Part shown: in pieces, positions 5,028-13,695 of the stretch
Layout of the letters: every line of letters starts with the position of its first letter
Position numbering within the stretch: position 1 is the stretch's first letter
Virus record (IMG/VR): IMGVR_UViG_2651869749_000010
Coordinates: 1-37,428 of that record
DNA length: 37,428 nt
From: a virus
Lineage: Duplodnaviria; Heunggongvirae; Uroviricota; Caudoviricetes
Strand: one strand, 5' to 3'
Notes under the pieces: generated by a model
Told to the model about the DNA's origin: nothing
The model's database searches: none
The model's input: the letters and a program-made list of their open reading frames with translations, nothing else
Made by a program: the position numbers and the translations under genes

Positions 5028-7850
5028 ATGACGGCAGAGTACATCAGGGACTGGCAACAACCGCGCCACGCAGTGGGGCGTGAAGGAACGGGGATCCCCG
5101 CTCCTGAATCCGCGCTTTCCTCCTGGCTGGATGCCTACCGGGCAGAGAACGAGCGCCGCCAGGAAATGGCTGATGCGGCGTTCTCCGCCACGCCGCTGGG
5201 CAACCTGATTAATAAAAGCCTAGACGCACAGGAAAAACAGGACAAAACAATCACACTGGCAGGAGACGCCAGAAAACAGGCACGCGGCGCGGTAGATGAG
5301 GCCATGGCCTCACTGCGCCTGCTGCCGTCCTATCTGCGCGATCCGCTTATTCGCCACCTCTCCTTCCTGCGCAAAAAACAGGAAGCCGATCGTCAGCAAG
5401 GAAAAAACGCCAGGCAGGCAGAACGCTATGCGCGTGGGACCCTGCGCAAAATATTCGAACGTCTGGAGCGCACCGATCACCGCTGGCTGACATCGGGTTA
5501 TCGCTCCCTTGCCGGACGTGAACGCCTGGACGATTTGATTTACCTGCCGCAACTCAACAAACACCAGATACAGACGCTGGCCACCATGACGGCGGCGATG
5601 TTCAGCAGCACCTTCGAAAAACTCTGCGATGGTTTTGGCGCGACTGATGGCGAGCTGACCATGGATGTAACGCTGAAGGCGTATCAGATGCTGGCCCGCA
5701 TGGCGTTACACTTACACGCCATGCCTCCGCATTATGACGCACTGACAACAGACAAAGACCGGAGGCACGAACCGGACACAGAACTGCTGCCGGGCGCAAT
5801 CCTTCGCCTGACCTGTGCGGAATGGTGGAAACGCAAACTGTGGCTGTTACGTTGCGAGTGGAGAGAAGAACAACTCCGCGCCGCCTGTCTAGTTTCCAGA
5901 AAAACATCGCCCTATCTGAGCCAGGACGCGTTAAGCGAGTTTCGCGCACAGCGCGAGAAAACACGCGATTTCCTGAAAAGTTTCATGCTGGAAAATGAAG
6001 ACGGGTTCACGATTGATCTCGAGACGGTGTATTACGCGGGAGTAAGTAACCCGGTTCACCGTAAGGCAGAAATGATGGCCACCATGAAGGGGCTGGAACT
6101 TCTGGCCGAAGCCCGTGGCGACAAAGCGGTGTTTCTGACTGTCACCTGCCCGTCAAAATACCACGCCACAACGGAGAACGGTCATCCGAATCCCAAATGG
6201 AACGGGGCCACAATGCGCGACTCCAGCGATTACCTGGTTAACACGTTTTTTGCGGCGGTCCGCAAAAAACTGAACCGCGACGACCTGCGCTGGTATGGCA
6301 TCCGCACGGTGGAGCCTCATCATGACGGCACCGTGCACTGGCATATGATGGTCTTTGCACATCCGGAAGAAATCGACACCATTGTGTCCCATACCCGCGA
6401 TATTGCCATTCAGGAAGACCGCCACGAGCTGGGCAATGATATTACTCCGCGCTTTAAGGTGGAGTATGTCGACGGCTCAAAAGGCACGCCAACCAGCTAC
6501 ATCGCCACCTACATCGGAAAGAACCTGGACAGCCGCGCCGTGGATGGCATCGACCCGAAAACGGACAAGCCACGCGTGGACCACGAAACCGGAAAATCAA
6601 TGGCCGAGAGCGTGGAACGCGCCATCGGCTGGGCGCGTCTTCACCGCGTCCGCCAGTTCCAGTTCTTTGGTATCCCCTCCCGTCAGGTATGGCGTGAACT
6701 CCGCCGCCTTGCCAGTCAGATGGCCCGCAACCCGGAAGGTCCACAACGTCTGGAAAATGACGCAATGGATGCGGTACTCGCTGCCGCTGATGCCGGGTGT
6801 TTTGCCACCTACATTGAGAAACAGGGTGGCGTACTTGTTCCACGCAAAGACTACCTGATTCGCACCGCCTACGACCTCGCAGAAGAGCTGAACGATTACG
6901 GCGAGCAAAGCGTACAGATTTACGGGATCTGGTCGCCACAAATCGGGGAATCTTCCCGCGTGTGCACGCACCCGGATAACTGGAAGCTGGTAAGACGTAA
7001 ACCGGAAGCGGAAGACAGCGCCCGCGAAAATGGTTTTGACCTTCAGGGCGGCCCTGCCGCCCCTTGGACTCGTGGCAATAACTGTCCCCGTGTACAGGAA
7101 ACGGACAACAACGGGACAGAACAGCCGGAAGAACGGCCAGCACCGTGGCCGCAGCTCCCTGACGGCGTTGAAGTGAACGAATGGATGCGCTCACTGAAAC
7201 GGCACGAACGCCGGGCGCTGATGCGTTCGCTTCGTGACAAACAGGCAAAAAACAGCAGTGATGAAATGCAGAGCTGGACACAGAGCCGCAAACAGCAGCG
7301 GCCTTTGCCTGATAACCACGAATTACTCGCTAAAGAATGGCGGGAGTCTGCTGAATCTCTCGGCCTGCATATCGGTGAACAGCAGATGCAGCACCTGTTA
7401 CGGGGCGGCAGTCTGTACGTTGACGGCAGCATCATTGCACCGCAGGGATTTGAAATTGTACGCAAACCGGATACCCGACCGGACAGCCGGATCACGCAGC
7501 TCTGGCAGCGCCTGAGCCGTAACCACGGCGTAAGCAGCACGGAGATCCGCCATAACCCGGTCGCCAGCTATCTGGAACAGCTGGGGGCATCAGACCCCGA
7601 AGCCGCCGCACGCCTGGCATCCACACTTCAGCAAGACCAGAACACCATGAAAACACCCGTTACCGTGCTTTCTGACATGCTGCGCGCCATCCGCGACGCA
7701 GAGCACGCACAGAGAATCAGTGAAACCACTGAACGCGCCCGCCGCAAAGCAGACCTGCTGCGAGGTGGCCTGACCAGTGGAAACAAAAAACAGACAGAAA
7801 CGGGATTCACAAATCCCGTAAATGAGCAAAAAACGCGCCGCGATATATGA
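5028..7850 (+). CDS. A: Replication initiation protein (P2 gpA-like rolling-circle endonuclease)
   Basis: 940-aa ORF with HUH-type motif (VHWHMMVF) and paired tyrosines (SYIATYIGKN) characteristic of P2 A-family nickases; position after early genes. Confidence 0.85.
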   Translation: MTAEYIRDWQQPRHAVGREGTGIPAPESALSSWLDAYRAENERRQEMADAAFSATPLGNLINKSLDAQEKQDKTITLAGDARKQARGAVDEAMASLRLLPSYLRDPLIRHLSFLRKKQEADRQQGKNARQAERYARGTLRKIFERLERTDHRWLTSGYRSLAGRERLDDLIYLPQLNKHQIQTLATMTAAMFSSTFEKLCDGFGATDGELTMDVTLKAYQMLARMALHLHAMPPHYDALTTDKDRRHEPDTELLPGAILRLTCAEWWKRKLWLLRCEWREEQLRAACLVSRKTSPYLSQDALSEFRAQREKTRDFLKSFMLENEDGFTIDLETVYYAGVSNPVHRKAEMMATMKGLELLAEARGDKAVFLTVTCPSKYHATTENGHPNPKWNGATMRDSSDYLVNTFFAAVRKKLNRDDLRWYGIRTVEPHHDGTVHWHMMVFAHPEEIDTIVSHTRDIAIQEDRHELGNDITPRFKVEYVDGSKGTPTSYIATYIGKNLDSRAVDGIDPKTDKPRVDHETGKSMAESVERAIGWARLHRVRQFQFFGIPSRQVWRELRRLASQMARNPEGPQRLENDAMDAVLAAADAGCFATYIEKQGGVLVPRKDYLIRTAYDLAEELNDYGEQSVQIYGIWSPQIGESSRVCTHPDNWKLVRRKPEAEDSARENGFDLQGGPAAPWTRGNNCPRVQETDNNGTEQPEERPAPWPQLPDGVEVNEWMRSLKRHERRALMRSLRDKQAKNSSDEMQSWTQSRKQQRPLPDNHELLAKEWRESAESLGLHIGEQQMQHLLRGGSLYVDGSIIAPQGFEIVRKPDTRPDSRITQLWQRLSRNHGVSSTEIRHNPVASYLEQLGASDPEAAARLASTLQQDQNTMKTPVTVLSDMLRAIRDAEHAQRISETTERARRKADLLRGGLTSGNKKQTETGFTNPVNEQKTRRDI
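7800..7819. promoter_or_regulatory. 20-bp palindrome ACGGGATT-N4-AATCCCGT, copy 1 (inside the 3' end of gene A)
   Basis: Read directly: acgggattcacaaatcccgt; second near-identical copy 73 bp downstream. Confidence 0.4.
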
Positions 7851-7872
7851 AGCGCGCATAAAACAGGCAAAA

Positions 7873-7892
7873 ACGGGATTTCAGAATCCCGT
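7873..7892. promoter_or_regulatory. 20-bp palindrome ACGGGATT-N4-AATCCCGT, copy 2 (upstream of the parM-like fragment)
   Basis: Read directly: acgggatttcagaatcccgt, flanked by the same AAACGGGATT...CCCGTAAA context as copy 1. Confidence 0.4.
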
Positions 7893-7926
7893 AAACGATT
7901 AATTAATCAACATAAGGAAAAGCGAC

Positions 7927-8328
7927 ATGAAAATTTGTATCGATGACGGCTCCACCAACATCAAGCTGGCATGGACTGAGAACGGCGAACGCCGCAACGC
8001 CATCAGCCCGAACAGCTTCAAGTCGGAATGGTCTGCGCCGTTCGGTGGCACGCAGCCCGCGAACTACATGCTTGATGGCGTGCGCTATGGTTTTGATCCG
8101 GTCAGCGATCGCTTTGTCCAGACAACTGACACGCAATACCAGTACAGCGATGTGAATGTCATTGCCATTCATCACGCGCTGGTCAAATCAGGCATCACGC
8201 CACAGGAGGTGGATGTGGTTGTCACCCTGCCACTGAGCGAGTATTTCGACACAAACGCACAGCCGGACATAGCCAACATCAACCGCAAAAAAAGCCCAGG
8301 ATTCCCGGGGCGGTTCAGAGGAGAGTGA
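7927..8328 (+). pseudogene. Truncated ParM/StbA-like actin-type segregation ATPase (N-terminal ~120 residues only)
   Basis: MKICIDDGSTNIKLAW...YQYSDVNVIAIHHALVKSGI...VVVTLPLSEYFDTNAQPDIANINRKK closely parallels the recalled N-terminus of plasmid R1 ParM; full-length ParM is ~320 aa, here the frame stops after 133 codons and unrelated sequence follows. Confidence 0.65.
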
Positions 8329-8330
8329 GA

Positions 8331-8822
8331 ATGCAAATTTCACCGGTTACTCTTCGTGTTGCGAAGGCGTTTATATCCAGACATCACCGACACAATAAAC
8401 CCCCGGTGGGGCATAAATTCAGCATTGGTCTGAGAAATGATGCCGGAGAATTGATAGGTGTGGCGACAGCCGGTAGACCTGTTGCACGACATTTGGACGA
8501 TGGATTAACGCTTGAAGTAAATCGCACATGTACCACAGGAGAACGCAACGCTAACAGCGCACTTTATGGTGCTGTCTGGCGGGCAGCAAAGGCTATGGGT
8601 TATCAACGTTGTATTACGTACACCCAGGCAGATGAATCAGGAGCATCTCTCCGCGCAGCTGGTTTTGTTCGTGTGAAAGAGCTTCCTCCAAGAAAAAGCT
8701 GGGCGGAATCAAGCGTCGCCCTGCGGAGTAAACGCGATCCGGTCGGAAACGGTGGTGTTCCTCGTGTGCTCTGGGAAATCAGGAGAATGAGTACCACTGG
8801 CATTCGCATCAAAGGAGAGTGA
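8331..8822 (+). CDS. Hypothetical basic protein (163 aa), first gene of accessory operon; possible degenerate GNAT-like fold
   Basis: ATG 8331 with AGGAGAGTGA RBS/junction; segment ALYGAVWRAAKAMGYQRCITYTQADESGASLRAAGF is loosely reminiscent of acetyltransferase-fold proteins but lacks a clear G-x-G loop. Confidence 0.55.
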   Translation: MQISPVTLRVAKAFISRHHRHNKPPVGHKFSIGLRNDAGELIGVATAGRPVARHLDDGLTLEVNRTCTTGERNANSALYGAVWRAAKAMGYQRCITYTQADESGASLRAAGFVRVKELPPRKSWAESSVALRSKRDPVGNGGVPRVLWEIRRMSTTGIRIKGE

Positions 8823-9091
8823 TATGGCAACTTTGACAAAAAAAGAACAAGCATGGTTGAGCGAATTACAGGACGTTCTTGATCGCTGCCCATCACCGAA
8901 AAAAATTGGTTTTTACACCATTGGCGATAAAAGCATTTACCTGTATGACCTGCGCCGCATGGATGAAATCATGGAGGCTCTTGATAATCGTTCGTCAATG
9001 GATTGGTGTGTTGCTGTCCATGATATGAATGCAGGGTTTGATGAAAAGATTTTGTTCCCCTCATCAGTTGAAAGCACAGCAGGATAAGGAC
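8811..9091 (+). repeat. 281-bp direct repeat, copy 1
   Basis: Identity by eye with 9497..9777; starts at AAAGGAGAGTGAT, ends at TAAGGAC. Confidence 0.85.
8824..9087 (+). CDS. Hypothetical small protein (87 aa), copy 1
   Basis: ATG 1 nt after upstream stop; identical second copy at 9510..9773. Confidence 0.6.
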   Translation: MATLTKKEQAWLSELQDVLDRCPSPKKIGFYTIGDKSIYLYDLRRMDEIMEALDNRSSMDWCVAVHDMNAGFDEKILFPSSVESTAG

Positions 9092-9097
9092 TAACAC

Positions 9098-9508
9098 ATG
9101 ACCACTATTACCAAAGAACGTATTGAATTGTTCATTAAAAATCCGCTTGAAAACGGGCTTACTCGTGACGAACAAATGGAACTGGCACGAATTGCACTGG
9201 CATCGCTGGAAGCAGAGGCAGTTATGTTCTGTATATCAGGACAAAATGTAGATTCAGAAGAACATGTATCAACCAGCAAAGCGGTTGTTGATGCCTGGGT
9301 TGAAGAATGGAATCAGGTTGACGGAAGTCCTGGCGAACCACTGTACAAAACTATGCCACTCTACTATCACGCTGCCTTGCCAGCGCCGGTAGTGCCGGAT
9401 GAAATGTATTGGCAGGATGCGCCAGTTGAAGGCAGCAGCAAAGCGGCTGCATACGCTACAGGCTGGAACGCCTGCCGCGCCGCTATGCTTCATGGGAAAG
9501 GAGAGTGA
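9098..9508 (+). CDS. Hypothetical protein (136 aa) bracketed by the duplicated 87-aa gene
   Basis: 136-aa ORF; stop followed 1 nt later by ATG of duplicate gene; no recognised domain. Confidence 0.55.
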   Translation: MTTITKERIELFIKNPLENGLTRDEQMELARIALASLEAEAVMFCISGQNVDSEEHVSTSKAVVDAWVEEWNQVDGSPGEPLYKTMPLYYHAALPAPVVPDEMYWQDAPVEGSSKAAAYATGWNACRAAMLHGKGE

Positions 9509-9777
9509 TATGGCAACTTTGACAAAAAAAGAACAAGCATGGTTGAGCGAATTACAGGACGTTCTTGATCGCTGCCCATCACCGAAAAAAATTGGTTTTT
9601 ACACCATTGGCGATAAAAGCATTTACCTGTATGACCTGCGCCGCATGGATGAAATCATGGAGGCTCTTGATAATCGTTCGTCAATGGATTGGTGTGTTGC
9701 TGTCCATGATATGAATGCAGGGTTTGATGAAAAGATTTTGTTCCCCTCATCAGTTGAAAGCACAGCAGGATAAGGAC
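9497..9777 (+). repeat. 281-bp direct repeat, copy 2
   Basis: Identity by eye with 8811..9091. Confidence 0.85.
9510..9773 (+). CDS. Hypothetical small protein (87 aa), copy 2 (identical to 8824..9087)
   Basis: ORF-track frame 9399..9773 contains the identical 87-aa sequence from ATG 9510; the N-terminal extension is the overlap with the upstream gene. Confidence 0.6.
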   Translation: MATLTKKEQAWLSELQDVLDRCPSPKKIGFYTIGDKSIYLYDLRRMDEIMEALDNRSSMDWCVAVHDMNAGFDEKILFPSSVESTAG

Positions 9778-9808
9778 CCAGCAAATATACACAACCTATA
9801 AAACACTA

Positions 9809-9833
9809 AAGCGCCTCAGGGGCGCTTTTTGTT
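9809..9833 (+). terminator. Rho-independent terminator closing the accessory operon
   Basis: GCGCC-tcag-GGGCGC hairpin followed by TTTTTGTTT. Confidence 0.6.
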
Positions 9834-9860
9834 TGCACAAAAGTGCACAAATTTGCACAA
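9834..9860 (+). repeat. Three TGCACAA direct repeats at exact 10-bp spacing
   Basis: tgcacaa at 9834, 9844, 9854 read directly. Confidence 0.6.
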
Positions 9861-10359
9861 TTTTTTTGAACGACTTTTTACCCTTCCGGCCCGCATGGCG
9901 GCTGGATCCGTCAAGGATCCGTGCGTGCACAAAAAAACGCGCTTTTTCTGCGCGCAGGTGACGGGGGAACAGCCCGCGTTTCAGGGGGTAAATAGCATTC
10001 CCTGAACGATGTCGCAGAGACACAACAGAATGGCCATATTTCTCACGCTGAGCATGAAAAAGGCGTGAGGGCTTTTGATTTGATGGGGTGAAAGGTAAGG
10101 CCGTCAAAATCGCACTGAGGCAGCGAGAACATACAGTCAACGCGGTGGAATTGCGTAAGAGTCTGACCGTCGATGGTGGCGATAAACTGGAAGGCGTCGT
10201 GAAATTATCTGATTGATACAGGAGCTGGAGAGCCGGGGCATAAATTTTTTATGCCCCGGCGAAGCAGCAGACAAGCGAAGCGCGTCAGCGATACGGCACC
10301 TTGCCGACCATACTTCATAAGTGCAAAATACGAGCAAAGAAATCAATGGAGGCTGTCTT

Positions 10360-10884
10360 ATGGTCATTAATTACAAGCAGTTAAGAGAAAAACGGGAGCA
10401 GGTAAAGGAGAGCTTTCGCCGCAATGAAGATCTGACCCCGCTTGTACGCCTTGCCCAGGGCATTGTTGATGCTTATGAAATCTCGCTGGAGCTGCCATCA
10501 CAGACCTGGACAGATAGCGACGGTAATCGCCAGCATTACGTTTCATGCGGACTGGAAGCAGCCGAAGGATTTCGCAGAATGCCTTTATCCCAGATCCCTG
10601 CCGCTACCCCCAAAGCATGGGGCAGCAATGATGAGCGAAAACTGACTTTTAGTATTGAAACGGTGGTTGACGACACACCTGGCGAAGTCGCGTTCGTACA
10701 CACTCCTGTTTCGATCGCAATGTATAACGATGAAATACAGGTTCGCGTTAATAATAATATCGTGCCACTTAAAGAAGGTAATTCACCCTACACCACCGTT
10801 TGTGAAGCCATTCAATATTACGTTCTCTCTGAAATTGATAATCTCAAGCCTGACGGCACCCAGAAAATGGTTCAACTCTGGTAA
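10360..10884 (+). CDS. Hypothetical protein convergent with the portal gene
   Basis: Frame 10321..10884; ATG at 10360; no recognised domain; overlaps portal 3' end by 41 bp on the opposite strand. Confidence 0.45.
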   Translation: MVINYKQLREKREQVKESFRRNEDLTPLVRLAQGIVDAYEISLELPSQTWTDSDGNRQHYVSCGLEAAEGFRRMPLSQIPAATPKAWGSNDERKLTFSIETVVDDTPGEVAFVHTPVSIAMYNDEIQVRVNNNIVPLKEGNSPYTTVCEAIQYYVLSEIDNLKPDGTQKMVQLW

Positions 10885-11944
10885 AAAGGACAGCCCCATC
10901 ACGGGGCTGTTTTTCATCAAGAAGAGCATAAGAGTTAAAACGGATCACCTCTTCGCCAAGCCAGTCATTGATGTGCTTCATAGCCTCCATGACGGGCATC
11001 AGCTCGTTAATTGCGTAAACCCGCGCTGCCTTCTCCACATCGCCAAACGCACTTTTTTCGCCCGGCATCGCCCCCATCAGTTGCGGCGGAACGCGGTGCG
11101 CAGCCAGCACATCATCACGGGATGCCGCCTTAACATTCATGAATTCATCTTTTGCGGTGATCTGCTGGAACGGCAAAATTTGCCCCCCCTCTTTGCCCCC
11201 GTTGGGCGCATGAATGAGCACGTTTTTAAACGCACCACCACCACGTGCCCCCTGTAGCGTTTCTTTCAGGGAGTCCATGCTTTCGCGGTTTACCTGCGCT
11301 GCACCGATGTAGATGATGCACCCGGCGTGGGATCCGTTGTCGTAGTACAGTTTTCTGAACATGTCCGCCGAATGAGAAAGGCTGGCCGAGAGTAATGCGC
11401 CAAGATATTCCGGCATGCCGTAGATTTCCTGGTTAATATCCGGATTCATCAGGTGGCACACTTTGCCAGGACGAAACTGAAACGCGTCCTTGCCATCCTG
11501 CACATACCACCATGATTCAAGATCGCTTCCGCGTCGCATGTATTTCGCCAGGGCGTGCCGTAATTTAAGCGGTTCGCCGAGCATATTGCTTCGAAGCTCA
11601 AGGAATGCGTTACCGAACACAAACCAGTCCAGCGCCAGCGCCGAGAAATCCTGCCGGGAAAGCAGCGGGTGCGGGATGTAGCAACCGAGTAATACATTGC
11701 GCTTAAAGTAAAGCGCAGACTGATGCCAGGACGTTTGCCGGGCAGCTCTTGCCAGACCGTACCAGTCCACCGGGGTTTCATACCACCGCCCGTTATCAGC
11801 ACAGTACATATTGTCCAGCAGGTCATGCCCGGTCAGGCGATAAGGACCATCAAATGTGAATGCACTGAGCGATGATTCTTTCCTGAGCGCATCAGCGAGA
11901 TCAATGCGTGAACTCATGCGCACTTTTTTATTTTTTCTGCTCAT
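10844..11944 (-). CDS. Q: Portal protein (P2 gpQ-like)
   Basis: 366-aa ORF directly downstream of and overlapping the large terminase gene; size and position as in P2. Confidence 0.8.
   Translation of the reverse strand: MSRKNKKVRMSSRIDLADALRKESSLSAFTFDGPYRLTGHDLLDNMYCADNGRWYETPVDWYGLARAARQTSWHQSALYFKRNVLLGCYIPHPLLSRQDFSALALDWFVFGNAFLELRSNMLGEPLKLRHALAKYMRRGSDLESWWYVQDGKDAFQFRPGKVCHLMNPDINQEIYGMPEYLGALLSASLSHSADMFRKLYYDNGSHAGCIIYIGAAQVNRESMDSLKETLQGARGGGAFKNVLIHAPNGGKEGGQILPFQQITAKDEFMNVKAASRDDVLAAHRVPPQLMGAMPGEKSAFGDVEKAARVYAINELMPVMEAMKHINDWLGEEVIRFNSYALLDEKQPRDGAVLFTRVEPFSGCRQA
10889..10915. terminator. Bidirectional hairpin terminator between convergent genes (lies inside the portal 3' coding end)
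   Basis: CAGCCCC-atca-GGGGCTG stem with T-run on both strands (tttttcatc on plus; cctttttac on minus). Confidence 0.45.
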
Positions 11945-13695
11945 CAGAACTCCATAACTGTGAAACGCTCGTTTTCTCCTTCGCCGCCAATTGGTTCGTT
12001 AATGACAGCAAGCATGGTTGCCCACGCAAGGTCGCCGTGGCTGATCCCCCTCGCGCGGTCCGTTTCGTAAGTGATAAAGCCGCCCGGTGTTTTCACCTTA
12101 CGCACGGCGTTAAAGGCTGCGACCAGCTCGCGTTCGGCGCGATCGTATTCCCACCGCCCGGCACGCATTATTTGCAGCATTTTCAGTACCAGCGACCGTT
12201 TTGATGACAGCGTGAAGGTGTACGGAATAGCAGCAGGGAAAAACCGTTTCACTATCTGATAAACAGCCTCCCCGTTCCCGCCCGTCACATCAATGCCGAT
12301 GTGTTCCACGTTGTAGCGACACGTGAACTCTTCAATGACTCTGGCCTGTTCTTCAAACTCCAGCCCCTGAACGCGTCGCGTCTCCACCGTTCGAAAACGG
12401 CCACCAGGAACAGACGGAGGAACCACCACGGACACAGCGCCGCTGTCGCCGTTGCCACTGCTGCCGTTTGCGTCATACCCAATCCATACCGGACGATTCC
12501 CCATCGGGCGGGGAGCAAAAGGTTTCCAGTCTTTCCAGTCGTCGTATCCGTCAACACCACAGCCAATCAGGATATTCAGGTTAAATGCCGATTCCCCTTC
12601 GCGGACAAACTCACACATATAGAGATTGAGGAACTCGTCTTCGGTGTTTTCATCACGAATTTCATCAATATCGGTGTGTTTCCAGCCGTGATTAACCACA
12701 TCTTCCAGCGTGACAATTTGCCGCCACGTCCGGTCAGGGCAGATAAGCCCGTTATGCAGCGTTTTCCAGTCCACAGAAAAACGCTGGCGTTTATGCGTGG
12801 CCTTTTTCTCGTTCCAGCGGTCGCCGTTCCAGTAGGCGTATGCCTCGTGCGTTTCGGTGGATGGCGTGGAGAAGTAGGTGCGCCGCAGTCCGCTGAGGGT
12901 TGCCATAGCGCCAGCCACCTTGCGCAGTTCAGCAAAGCGACTGACCCAGAAAAATTCATCAAAATAAAAATTGCCCGTATAGGACTGCGCCGACGCAGCA
13001 GAAGTGCCGAGAAAATGCAGCTCTGCGCCGTTGGAGAGGATGATTTTATCGCCCCCTTTCAGCTCCACATCAACTTCAGCCGCGGCCTTCTGAATAATGC
13101 TTTTAAACTGGAACGCCTGACGACGCGACGCAGACAAAAAAATCTGGTTACGCTGGTAAGGTTGCGCCACATCGTCACGCAGCGCCATCAGCAGTGCTTC
13201 CTGTGCAAAATACCAGGTCGCGCCAATCTGTCGGGATTTCAGGATCATCCTGTTACGTATCCCGGCTTCCCTGCAAAGGGTCAGGGAGTCAAACCAGCCC
13301 CGCTGATGCCACTCCAGCCTGCTGATGATTTTTTCCCGCAGTGCGACAATCTGTTCCGGCGTGAAATGATTTTTGAGTTTTTTCGCCCGGCCTTTCTTTC
13401 CTGTGGCCGTCGCATCCGGCTGGCCATCATGCATTTTTTTAAGCTGCCGGGTCAGCAGGTCTATTTCCTTAAAGTCACCGCCTGTTTTATTCTGTTTTTC
13501 AGTAAGCTGGATGAGGCGCGCATCGATGGACTGCGTGACACGCTGCACGGGTGGCGTTTCATCCCACTGGTCGCGTTTTTTCCACGCATAAATCGTGTTC
13601 GGGTTTATTCCCATCAGACGTGATATTTCTGCGGGCGGATAACCCTGCCAGTAAAGTTGCCGCGCACGCTGGCGCACAAAAGCGTCCTGAATCAT
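11944..13695 (-). CDS. P: Terminase large (ATPase) subunit (P2 gpP-like)
   Basis: 583-aa ORF, size and position as P2 gpP; divergent from scaffold gene. Confidence 0.85.
   Translation of the reverse strand: MIQDAFVRQRARQLYWQGYPPAEISRLMGINPNTIYAWKKRDQWDETPPVQRVTQSIDARLIQLTEKQNKTGGDFKEIDLLTRQLKKMHDGQPDATATGKKGRAKKLKNHFTPEQIVALREKIISRLEWHQRGWFDSLTLCREAGIRNRMILKSRQIGATWYFAQEALLMALRDDVAQPYQRNQIFLSASRRQAFQFKSIIQKAAAEVDVELKGGDKIILSNGAELHFLGTSAASAQSYTGNFYFDEFFWVSRFAELRKVAGAMATLSGLRRTYFSTPSTETHEAYAYWNGDRWNEKKATHKRQRFSVDWKTLHNGLICPDRTWRQIVTLEDVVNHGWKHTDIDEIRDENTEDEFLNLYMCEFVREGESAFNLNILIGCGVDGYDDWKDWKPFAPRPMGNRPVWIGYDANGSSGNGDSGAVSVVVPPSVPGGRFRTVETRRVQGLEFEEQARVIEEFTCRYNVEHIGIDVTGGNGEAVYQIVKRFFPAAIPYTFTLSSKRSLVLKMLQIMRAGRWEYDRAERELVAAFNAVRKVKTPGGFITYETDRARGISHGDLAWATMLAVINEPIGGEGENERFTVMEF

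Follow-up and report, generated by a model that had tools for sequence, protein, structure and literature searches.

A short sequence recurring at gene boundaries of a P2-like prophage is probably the core of a linker at which accessory genes are joined and exchanged

Why should one short sequence, covering the end of one gene and the start of the next, recur at three neighbouring gene boundaries of a prophage? We addressed this question for a 37,428-nucleotide (nt) stretch of DNA (IMG/VR record IMGVR_UViG_2651869749_000010; the whole stretch is called the window here), which represents a P2-like prophage with the replication endonuclease gene gpA at 5028-7850 (+ strand) and portal and terminase genes at 10844-13695 (- strand). 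The region of interest lies between gpA and the portal gene, in a variable cargo spot that corresponds by gene order to the tin/old region of P2. On the + strand, this spot contains one tight string of a parM fragment (ParM'), a Mom-like gene of the XF1762 family, hyp87, hyp136, a second hyp87 and a terminator-like hairpin. The original prediction, made from the letters of the window, interpreted the recurring sequence as a conserved linker joining gene cassettes. Our analysis suggests that the motif is indeed probably the core of a short gene-boundary linker of temperate-phage accessory arrays, where open reading frames (ORFs) are joined, exchanged and deleted by short-homology recombination, and that the three copies in the window share one origin.

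The window has exactly three copies of the motif, AGGAGAGTGA-N(1-2)-ATG, each on the + strand (8319-8333, 8813-8826 and 9499-9512; the first had initially been placed 1 nt off, at 8318), whereas 100 dinucleotide-preserving shuffles of the window gave none. We attribute this excess over chance to a single boundary sequence from which the three copies are derived, rather than to independent occurrences. The upstream ORFs end in ...GRFRGE (ParM fragment), ...GIRIKGE (XF1762) and ...MLHGKGE (hyp136), where, as for all C-termini given below, the stop codon follows directly. In all three copies the TGA lies 1-2 nt ahead of the ATG, and AAGGAG precedes the ATG by 7 nt in copies 2 and 3 and by 8 nt in copy 1, so that each shows the layout of a translationally coupled junction with a Shine-Dalgarno (SD) sequence inside the upstream ORF and stop and start codons a few nucleotides apart. 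The motif itself is the 3' core of a boundary sequence of 12-30 nt with the consensus gctGGCATTcGCATCAAAGGAGAGTGA-(T/GA)-ATG, or, in its fuller form, gctGGCATT(C/G)GCATCAAAGGAGAGTGA-(T/GA/G)-ATG. This linker encodes the tail ...A-G-I-R-I-K-G-E-stop of the upstream ORF, with the strong SD sequence AAGGAG embedded in the K-G-E codons. From this layout, with the SD sequence in the tail and the stop next to the start, we infer that the downstream ORF would be translationally coupled to the upstream one. An RNA element as the identity of the motif was ruled out by an Rfam search of 7600-10400, which gave no match at E<=1, and by the RNA folds of five junction contexts, which were unremarkable (z-scores of -0.96 to +1.16). 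A 9-bp hairpin is predicted between the SD/stop sequence of copy 1 (GGAGAGUGA, 8320-8328) and codons 6-9 of XF1762 (8347-8355), and it is predicted in the related locus L001 too; such a hairpin could make XF1762 depend on translation of the upstream ORF, although the z-scores of the fold lack significance.

To place the motif in a wider context, about 290 related loci were collected, including viral-contig loci, of which 80 were anchored on XF1762 and 80 on hyp87, while a further 120 (L165-L284) were chosen only by the 17-mer GCATCAAAGGAGAGTGA. The 12-mer AAAGGAGAGTGA occurred 338 times in these loci, always on the gene strand at a stop/start junction: 313 copies lay between two ORFs of at least 40 amino acids (aa), and the remaining 25 had the same sequence context with the ORF criteria failed. 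Over 87 contexts the consensus reads g.gc.gctggcaTTcGCAtCAAAGGAGAGTGA followed by taTG. The linker joined 16 unrelated types of upstream C-terminal bodies to 18 downstream families in 63 observed combinations, the common types having mostly 4-9 partners, and this one junction connected XF1762 alone to at least 6 different downstream gene families. Of the 17 distinct upstream types ahead of hyp87, 13 carried the linker, converging only in their last ~12-30 nt. Moreover, identical upstream bodies were found with alternative linker alleles (AAGIRIKGE or AAGIKEESE), the switch point falling within GCCGCTGGCAT. Thus, a short conserved sequence stands between unrelated flanks, the flanks assort independently, and breakpoints fall inside the sequence, which is how phage boundary sequences are recognized. 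The expectation that related genomes would show the linker at cassette boundaries with different flanking genes was therefore borne out. Since the same 12-30 nt both end and precede many unrelated ORFs, the pattern indicates that whole ORFs are joined, exchanged and deleted there and yet remain in frame and expressed.

In the unbiased part of the sample, 115 of 127 upstream genes fell into one cluster, which is a single-linkage group of mosaic accessory proteins and not one family; its members have Ead_Ea22-type or 'MTTITKE'-type N-termini combined with many different C-terminal domains. The exceptions were XF1762 (8 genes), an HNH_3 endonuclease and a holin. Arrays with the linker were found in four settings, namely a lambdoid recT-to-int region, a lambdoid region from a DUF977-family gene to DUF968/RusA, a conjugative-type plasmid and the P2-like cargo spot. 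Another common partner at the linker is a DpdA-like gene (phrog_887). A 169-aa HNH_3 + AP2-like endonuclease gene (cluster G18, one locus among L165-L284) ends in ...HGVAGIRIKGE, and a free-standing homing-type nuclease at the linker might stimulate exchange there.

One case of gain and loss concerns XF1762. Its product scored 204.7 bits against NCBIfam NF045478 (curated cut-off 50). It also matched PHROG 1384 'Mom-like DNA modification protein' (4e-42) and, at 22.4 bits and hence under the family cut-off, Pfam Mom, so that the gene may be cargo for DNA modification or anti-restriction. Of 5,426 complete E. coli genomes, ~2,250 share parts of the window region, and its full arrangement was in none. 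Related loci instead show gpA-ParM-ParR-hyp143-XF1762-hyp87 (L001), gpA-ParM-ParR-hyp144-hyp87 (L004), ParM'-hyp143 fragment-XF1762-hyp87 (L003) and ParM'-XF1762-hyp87 (L002), the last being the window arrangement minus the second unit. In L001, the gene upstream of XF1762 ends in ...AACATTGGCATCAAAGGAGAGTGA-GA-ATG and XF1762 itself in ...GGCATTCGCATCAAAGGAGAGTGA-T-ATG, and XF1762 is therefore enclosed by 22-nt direct repeats with 21 matching positions. At other loci the end of hyp143 meets hyp87 directly via the linker, leaving a clean insertion or deletion of XF1762. The expectation that swapped cassettes share the motif thus held as well, with presence and absence of the whole ORF being bounded exactly by motif copies.

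A second event of this kind became visible through the parM junction, which had been regarded as independent of the other two. Our comparison contradicts this. The parM homology reaches as far as 8292, the native XF1762 leader can be aligned from 8315 onwards, and nucleotides 8296-8317 are identical at 22 of 22 positions to the terminus of an intact 1,310-bp insertion sequence (IS) in L286. This IS is multi-copy in E. coli, with other copies annotated as IS3 / IS1203 family, and is probably of the IS629 type. The possibility that a different allele of the upstream gene ended in these 22 nt (8293-8314) was considered and dropped in favour of the IS end. Judging from these alignments, the parM junction is an IS-associated deletion scar followed by the native linker's last 13-15 nt (3' side). 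In other words, it is the native leader of XF1762 in which 22 nt of IS scar have taken the place of the upstream half. Copy 1 is thus the 3' remnant of a linker once ahead of XF1762. An IS1203/IS629-type element would first have inserted in or beside that linker, and a later deletion would have taken the 3' end of parM, parR, the upstream mosaic gene and the IS except for 22 nt. ParM' ends in RGE because its truncated frame happens to read through the scar into the linker TGA. The parM stub is therefore an IS-scarred pseudogene, which corrects the annotation of the window, as do the XF1762 tail and the origin of the 281-nt repeat described below. In 11 E. coli genomes, the same ParM'-scar junction (its sequence was read in L285 only) is followed by GAGGAGAGTGA-T-ATG-hyp87, and XF1762 is missing exactly between two motif copies. 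As the scar is a one-off historical marker, this presence/absence must go back to a crossover within the ~10 nt common to copies 1 and 2; comparing L285 with L002, the loss spans two AGGAGAGTGA copies 494 nt apart.

Copy 2 is a linker tail fused to XF1762 past its conserved end ...EIRRM. The E. coli form continues beyond EIRRM with STTGIRIKGE, whereas most relatives have 154 aa and end in ...EIRRMK, 9 residues earlier. In three other XF1762 lineages the tail likewise matches the linker allele that lies upstream of the gene there (16/16 nt, 29/32 nt and a gapped ~27-nt match). These matches suggest that the tail was either captured repeatedly or that the two flanking linker copies evolve in concert, and both point to frequent exchange at linkers. 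Of the observation that three unrelated proteins all end in GE-stop, the endings are hence real and the independence is lost: one is a native tail (hyp136), one a tail that most relatives lack (XF1762) and one a frame accident (ParM').

Copies 2 and 3 lie at the left edges of a perfect 281-nt repeat (8811-9091 = 9497-9777), which had been taken for a duplication. The repeat is real, and its origin is a different one. Window positions 9000-9231 show 94-96% identity to a lambdoid-array arrangement of hyp87 followed by an MTTITKE-type gene, and positions 9190-9600 correspond to hyp144-hyp87 of P2-type relatives with 98% identity; the two matches overlap in a conserved N-terminal segment. As hyp136 matches two sources, it is itself recombinant. 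On this comparison, the 281-nt repeat is not a simple tandem duplication; it came about as a side effect when two arrays, both with a hyp87, were joined with the mosaic hyp136 between them. Copy 3 is the native end of hyp136. Neither the hyp87-hyp136-hyp87 arrangement nor a contiguous hyp136 was found in any genome searched. In E. coli 190693 (L328, 833884-840638), the P2-like prophage is 99.9% identical to the window in this region, and the strain also has a lambdoid prophage with ...AAMLHGKGE-hyp87-MTTITKE gene; this lambdoid prophage has the sequences from which hyp87-hyp136-hyp87 of the window could be built by inter-prophage recombination. We also considered hyp136 as an Ea22 homologue and rejected this: hyp136 had no Pfam match, hence no Ead_Ea22 domain (PF13935), and BLASTP against lambda Ea22 and a PGAP 'ead/Ea22-like' protein, both of which match PF13935, was not significant. 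The linker tail and the neighbourhood are the only common features.

Exchange at the linker might proceed through phage Red/RecT-type annealing, through RecA, or through slippage between direct repeats; Red-type recombinases use short or diverged homologies (PMC2327257, PMC3945230). Three explanations do without shuffling at a shared DNA linker as the cause, or place it elsewhere. The one that survives best holds that the peptide tail ...R-A-A-G-I-x-I-x-G-E is selected, e.g. as a partner-binding or oligomerisation strand, with DNA identity and shuffling as side effects. Many unrelated C-terminal domains do end in h-x-x-h-R-x-A-G-I-R-I-K-G-E, and A-G-[IV]-x-[IV]-...-E is kept where the DNA differs (AGIKEESE, AGVNVEFE, AGIQIQGGE, AGVDVREAE). 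Nevertheless, the tail is dispensable for XF1762, because most relatives do without it, and it sits on enzymes of unrelated folds such as the Mom-like protein and the HNH endonuclease. ParM' reads a scrambled version of it in the window (...GRFRGE). Moreover, within E. coli the block is nucleotide-invariant across unrelated bodies, including synonymous sites. We regard the selected tail as quite improbable as the whole explanation and as a possible contributor to linker conservation.

The second explanation is an ordinary strong ribosome-binding site. In frame, K-G-E-stop is AAGGAG-TGA, and packed phage operons could have converged on it independently, with neither shared ancestry nor a role in recombination. 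The core is indeed a near-consensus SD sequence with stop and start 1-2 nt apart. Among some small unrelated ORFs the common part is limited to the final ~12 nt (SNKGE, ITTKGE) or does not exceed ~17 nt (FRIKGE), the same 17-mer occurs at one holin-to-endolysin junction, maybe by chance, and most lambdoid-array junctions use other arrangements of ribosome-binding site and stop. What an SD sequence does not need is identity that reaches 17-30 nt into the upstream coding sequence, and for this reason the linker is more than a generic ribosome-binding site. Nor does convergence account for identical linkers beside unrelated bodies in so many combinations, for insertions and deletions whose limits are exactly the linker copies, for alleles that switch within the block, or for a 12-mer found in one context in 338 of 338 copies. 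For the 17-30-nt block, this explanation is largely refuted, and we consider it very improbable overall. Scarcely credible is a dedicated cassette-mobility system, in which a homing endonuclease or site-specific recombinase would target the linker and insert cassettes with target duplication: the local linker allele does form direct repeats around XF1762 in four lineages and one HNH_3/AP2 endonuclease gene ends in the linker tail, but that gene accounts for a single one of 127 junctions, the arrays in P2-like prophages, two lambdoid regions and a conjugative plasmid have no enzyme consistently linked to them, inverted repeats and attC-like structure are absent at the junctions, and the crossover points differ within the block.

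Several points weigh against a linker at which ORFs are exchanged by short-homology recombination. Every recombination event proposed here is read from a comparison of present-day sequences. For junction pairs with both flanks unrelated, the exact identity (median 21 nt to the left of the stop and 0 nt to the right) includes loci L165-L284, whose selection by the 17-mer inflates the lengths of the shared blocks. Furthermore, closely related E. coli isolates are the source of many IMG/VR loci, and our counts are therefore not counts of independent events. An intact IS adjoining the XF1762 leader was absent from all 5,426 complete E. coli genomes searched, which makes the order of events at the scar a reconstruction. 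At the scar-side crossover of XF1762 the identity amounts to ~10 nt, and slippage fits it as well as recombinase exchange does. Selection for the SD sequence, for coupling or for the peptide tail could partly explain the conservation of the linker, and divergent linker alleles do keep A-G-[IV]-x-[IV] at the protein level. Finally, in the lambdoid array L287 the linker is present at only 2 of 12 junctions. The proposal of a conserved linker joining cassettes thus stands to a large extent at the junctions of related genomes and fails as a universal boundary.

How does this linker compare to known systems? The closest are the boundary or linker sequences of mosaic lambdoid phages, known from the modular theory (Susskind & Botstein 1978) and from HK620 (Clark et al. 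2001), both as cited in PMC3029335. Such conserved sequences were proposed decades ago as a route of phage genome reshuffling, and they were held hard to find at most mosaic joints, so that illegitimate recombination became the default explanation (PMC3029335). The likeness lies in a short conserved sequence at gene boundaries, independently assorting unrelated modules and a proposed focus of homologous recombination. In contrast to them, the linker described here is partly coding (C-terminal tail, SD sequence and stop/start), acts at the scale of single ORFs rather than functional modules and also occurs outside lambdoid phages, in the P2-like cargo spot and on a conjugative plasmid. To the seven published HK620 boundary sequences it is likened by concept and not by sequence, and the motif string was not found in the relevant literature we covered, which did not include Clark et al. 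2001. Taken together, the linker is a well-populated case of a known idea and not a new kind of element.

The linker also exists in phage lambda itself. The ea22 gene in the exo-xis region ends in ...SDAGIRIKGE with an identical 24-mer, GGCATTCGCATCAAAGGAGAGTGA (L290, 2661-2690), giving the tail ...AGIRIKGE; the linker-bearing genes of the window, hyp136 and XF1762, differ from ea22 in not encoding Pfam Ead_Ea22 proteins. The ea22 genes are mosaic, with variable C-terminal domains (PMC10834534). In lambda, the linker TGA is followed by GATC and not by ATG, and no coupled gene therefore follows. The start of ea8.5 lies ~190 nt beyond the lambda linker, and relatives have GATG where lambda has GATC; by this comparison the GATC looks like a dead start codon from a lost downstream cassette. 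An exact 21-mer scan with one genome per species, which was intended to give the taxonomic range, returned beyond Escherichia and Shimwellia mostly very short or ~48.5-kb contigs in unlikely taxa (L289-L327). The odd matches came from assemblies labelled Shewanella, Pseudomonas, Streptococcus, Streptomyces and others, on short contigs of 300 bp to a few kb, often with low coverage. L290, the only contig of the scan that was checked, is 100% phage lambda, and most other odd matches look like lambda contamination of public assemblies. With this presumed contamination, the scan is uninformative on host range.

Integron cassettes (attC/IntI) resemble the arrays in having co-transcribed, ORF-sized cassettes, a recurring separator sequence and presence/absence bounded by that separator. 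Unlike them, the linker has no attC-like imperfect palindrome and no linked integrase, its repeat is coding, and exchange looks like short-homology rather than site-specific recombination; the junctions showed no inverted repeat and no unusual fold, and their neighbourhoods no consistent recombinase. Deletion between short direct repeats and IS deletion scars are a further parallel, given the loss of XF1762 between AGGAGAGTGA copies and the truncation of parM beside a 22-nt IS end. Those processes are generic mutational ones, whereas here the direct repeats around XF1762 exist because the linker recurs.

A bolder view is that the linker is a maintained 'universal joint' and more than passive homology. 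Through it, single-ORF accessory genes of plasmids and of lambdoid and P2-like prophages would form one freely shuffling pool, much like an integron that lacks an integrase. A cassette would contribute only its ATG and what follows, and take tail, SD sequence and stop from the linker, with phage annealing recombinases driving the exchange. We think this unlikely; if true, its signature would be that linker alleles evolve in concert within the gene pool of each host, such as XF1762 being flanked by the local allele in four lineages. Returning to the more modest reading of a linker with short-homology exchange, it offers a concrete and abundant case of a boundary sequence, found in lambda itself and in dozens of accessory-ORF combinations. 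The ORFs joined there include a Mom-like gene, a DpdA-like gene, an HNH endonuclease and many unknowns, distributed over three kinds of mobile element. The linker may thus serve as a tractable substrate for measuring short-homology recombination, and it gives a simple rule to delimit and mine accessory cassettes in E. coli prophages. The features of the window are collected in Table 1.

Table 1 Features of the cargo spot in the window, in order of position.
Feature	Position	Strand	Remarks
parM 5' fragment (ParM')	7927-8292	+	~first 122 codons; ORF runs on to TGA 8326-8328; Pfam StbA_N 1.8e-63; full-length parM homology ends at 8292
22-nt scar, terminal inverted repeat of an IS3-family IS (IS1203/IS629-type)	8296-8317	-	CCAGGATTCCCGGGGCGGTTCA; matches last 22 nt of intact 1,310-bp IS in L286
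Motif copy 1, 3' remnant of native XF1762 linker (SD, TGA, GA, ATG)	8319-8333	+	relatives: ...AACATTGGCATCAAAGGAGAGTGAGAATG, end of a 143-aa mosaic gene
XF1762-family Mom-like protein, 163 aa	8331-8822	+	NCBIfam NF045478 5e-61; phrog_1384 Mom-like 4e-42
XF1762 linker tail STTGIRIKGE, codons 154-163	8790-8819	+	most relatives stop at ...EIRRMK, 154 aa
Motif copy 2, full linker GGCATTCGCATCAAAGGAGAGTGATATG, XF1762-hyp87 joint	8799-8826 (motif 8813-8826)	+	21/22 nt same as linker upstream of XF1762 in L001
281-nt perfect direct repeat, left copy	8811-9091	+	left edge inside linker; right edge hyp87 stop + next SD (GGATAAGGAC)
hyp87 copy 1, 87 aa, phrog_1714 (function unknown)	8824-9087	+	
hyp136 mosaic gene, ends ...AAMLHGKGE	9098-9508	+	'MTTITKE' N-terminal module; C-terminal part = P2-type hyp144; phrog_5117/660/60
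Motif copy 3, linker allele GCCGCTATGCTTCATGGGAAAGGAGAGTGATATG, native hyp136 end joined to hyp87	9479-9512 (motif 9499-9512)	+	L004 and L328 have same junction
281-nt repeat, right copy	9497-9777	+	
hyp87 copy 2	9510-9773	+	
Intrinsic-terminator-like hairpin + T run	9808-9828	+	closes parM-to-hyp87 string

Some further observations concern the surroundings of the string. A plasmid-type ParM/ParR partition module occupies the gpA/portal cargo spot of integrated P2-like prophages (window 7850-8292; L001 and L004). Two 42-nt direct repeats (7784-7825 and 7857-7898, 81% identical) each contain a 20-nt hairpin, ACGGGATT...AATCCCGT; the first is still within gpA, at the 3' end of its ORF, and the second falls in the gap before parM. 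These repeats are plausibly a parC-like centromere/operator of the ParMR module, and with parR deleted in the window, the downstream gene string might be derepressed. Between the cargo terminator and the portal gene, a 187-aa ORF (10321-10884) belongs to phrog_5091 (function unknown); at the equivalent position, a 525-nt hypothetical ORF is annotated in L002 and L004 and nothing is annotated in L001 and L003. At 9829-9870 and 9927-9957, we observed a cluster of TGCACAA repeats with a palindrome (AAAAGTGCACAAATTTGCACAATTTT) directly past the terminator, which may be a regulator-binding site, and a second terminator-like hairpin on the minus strand.

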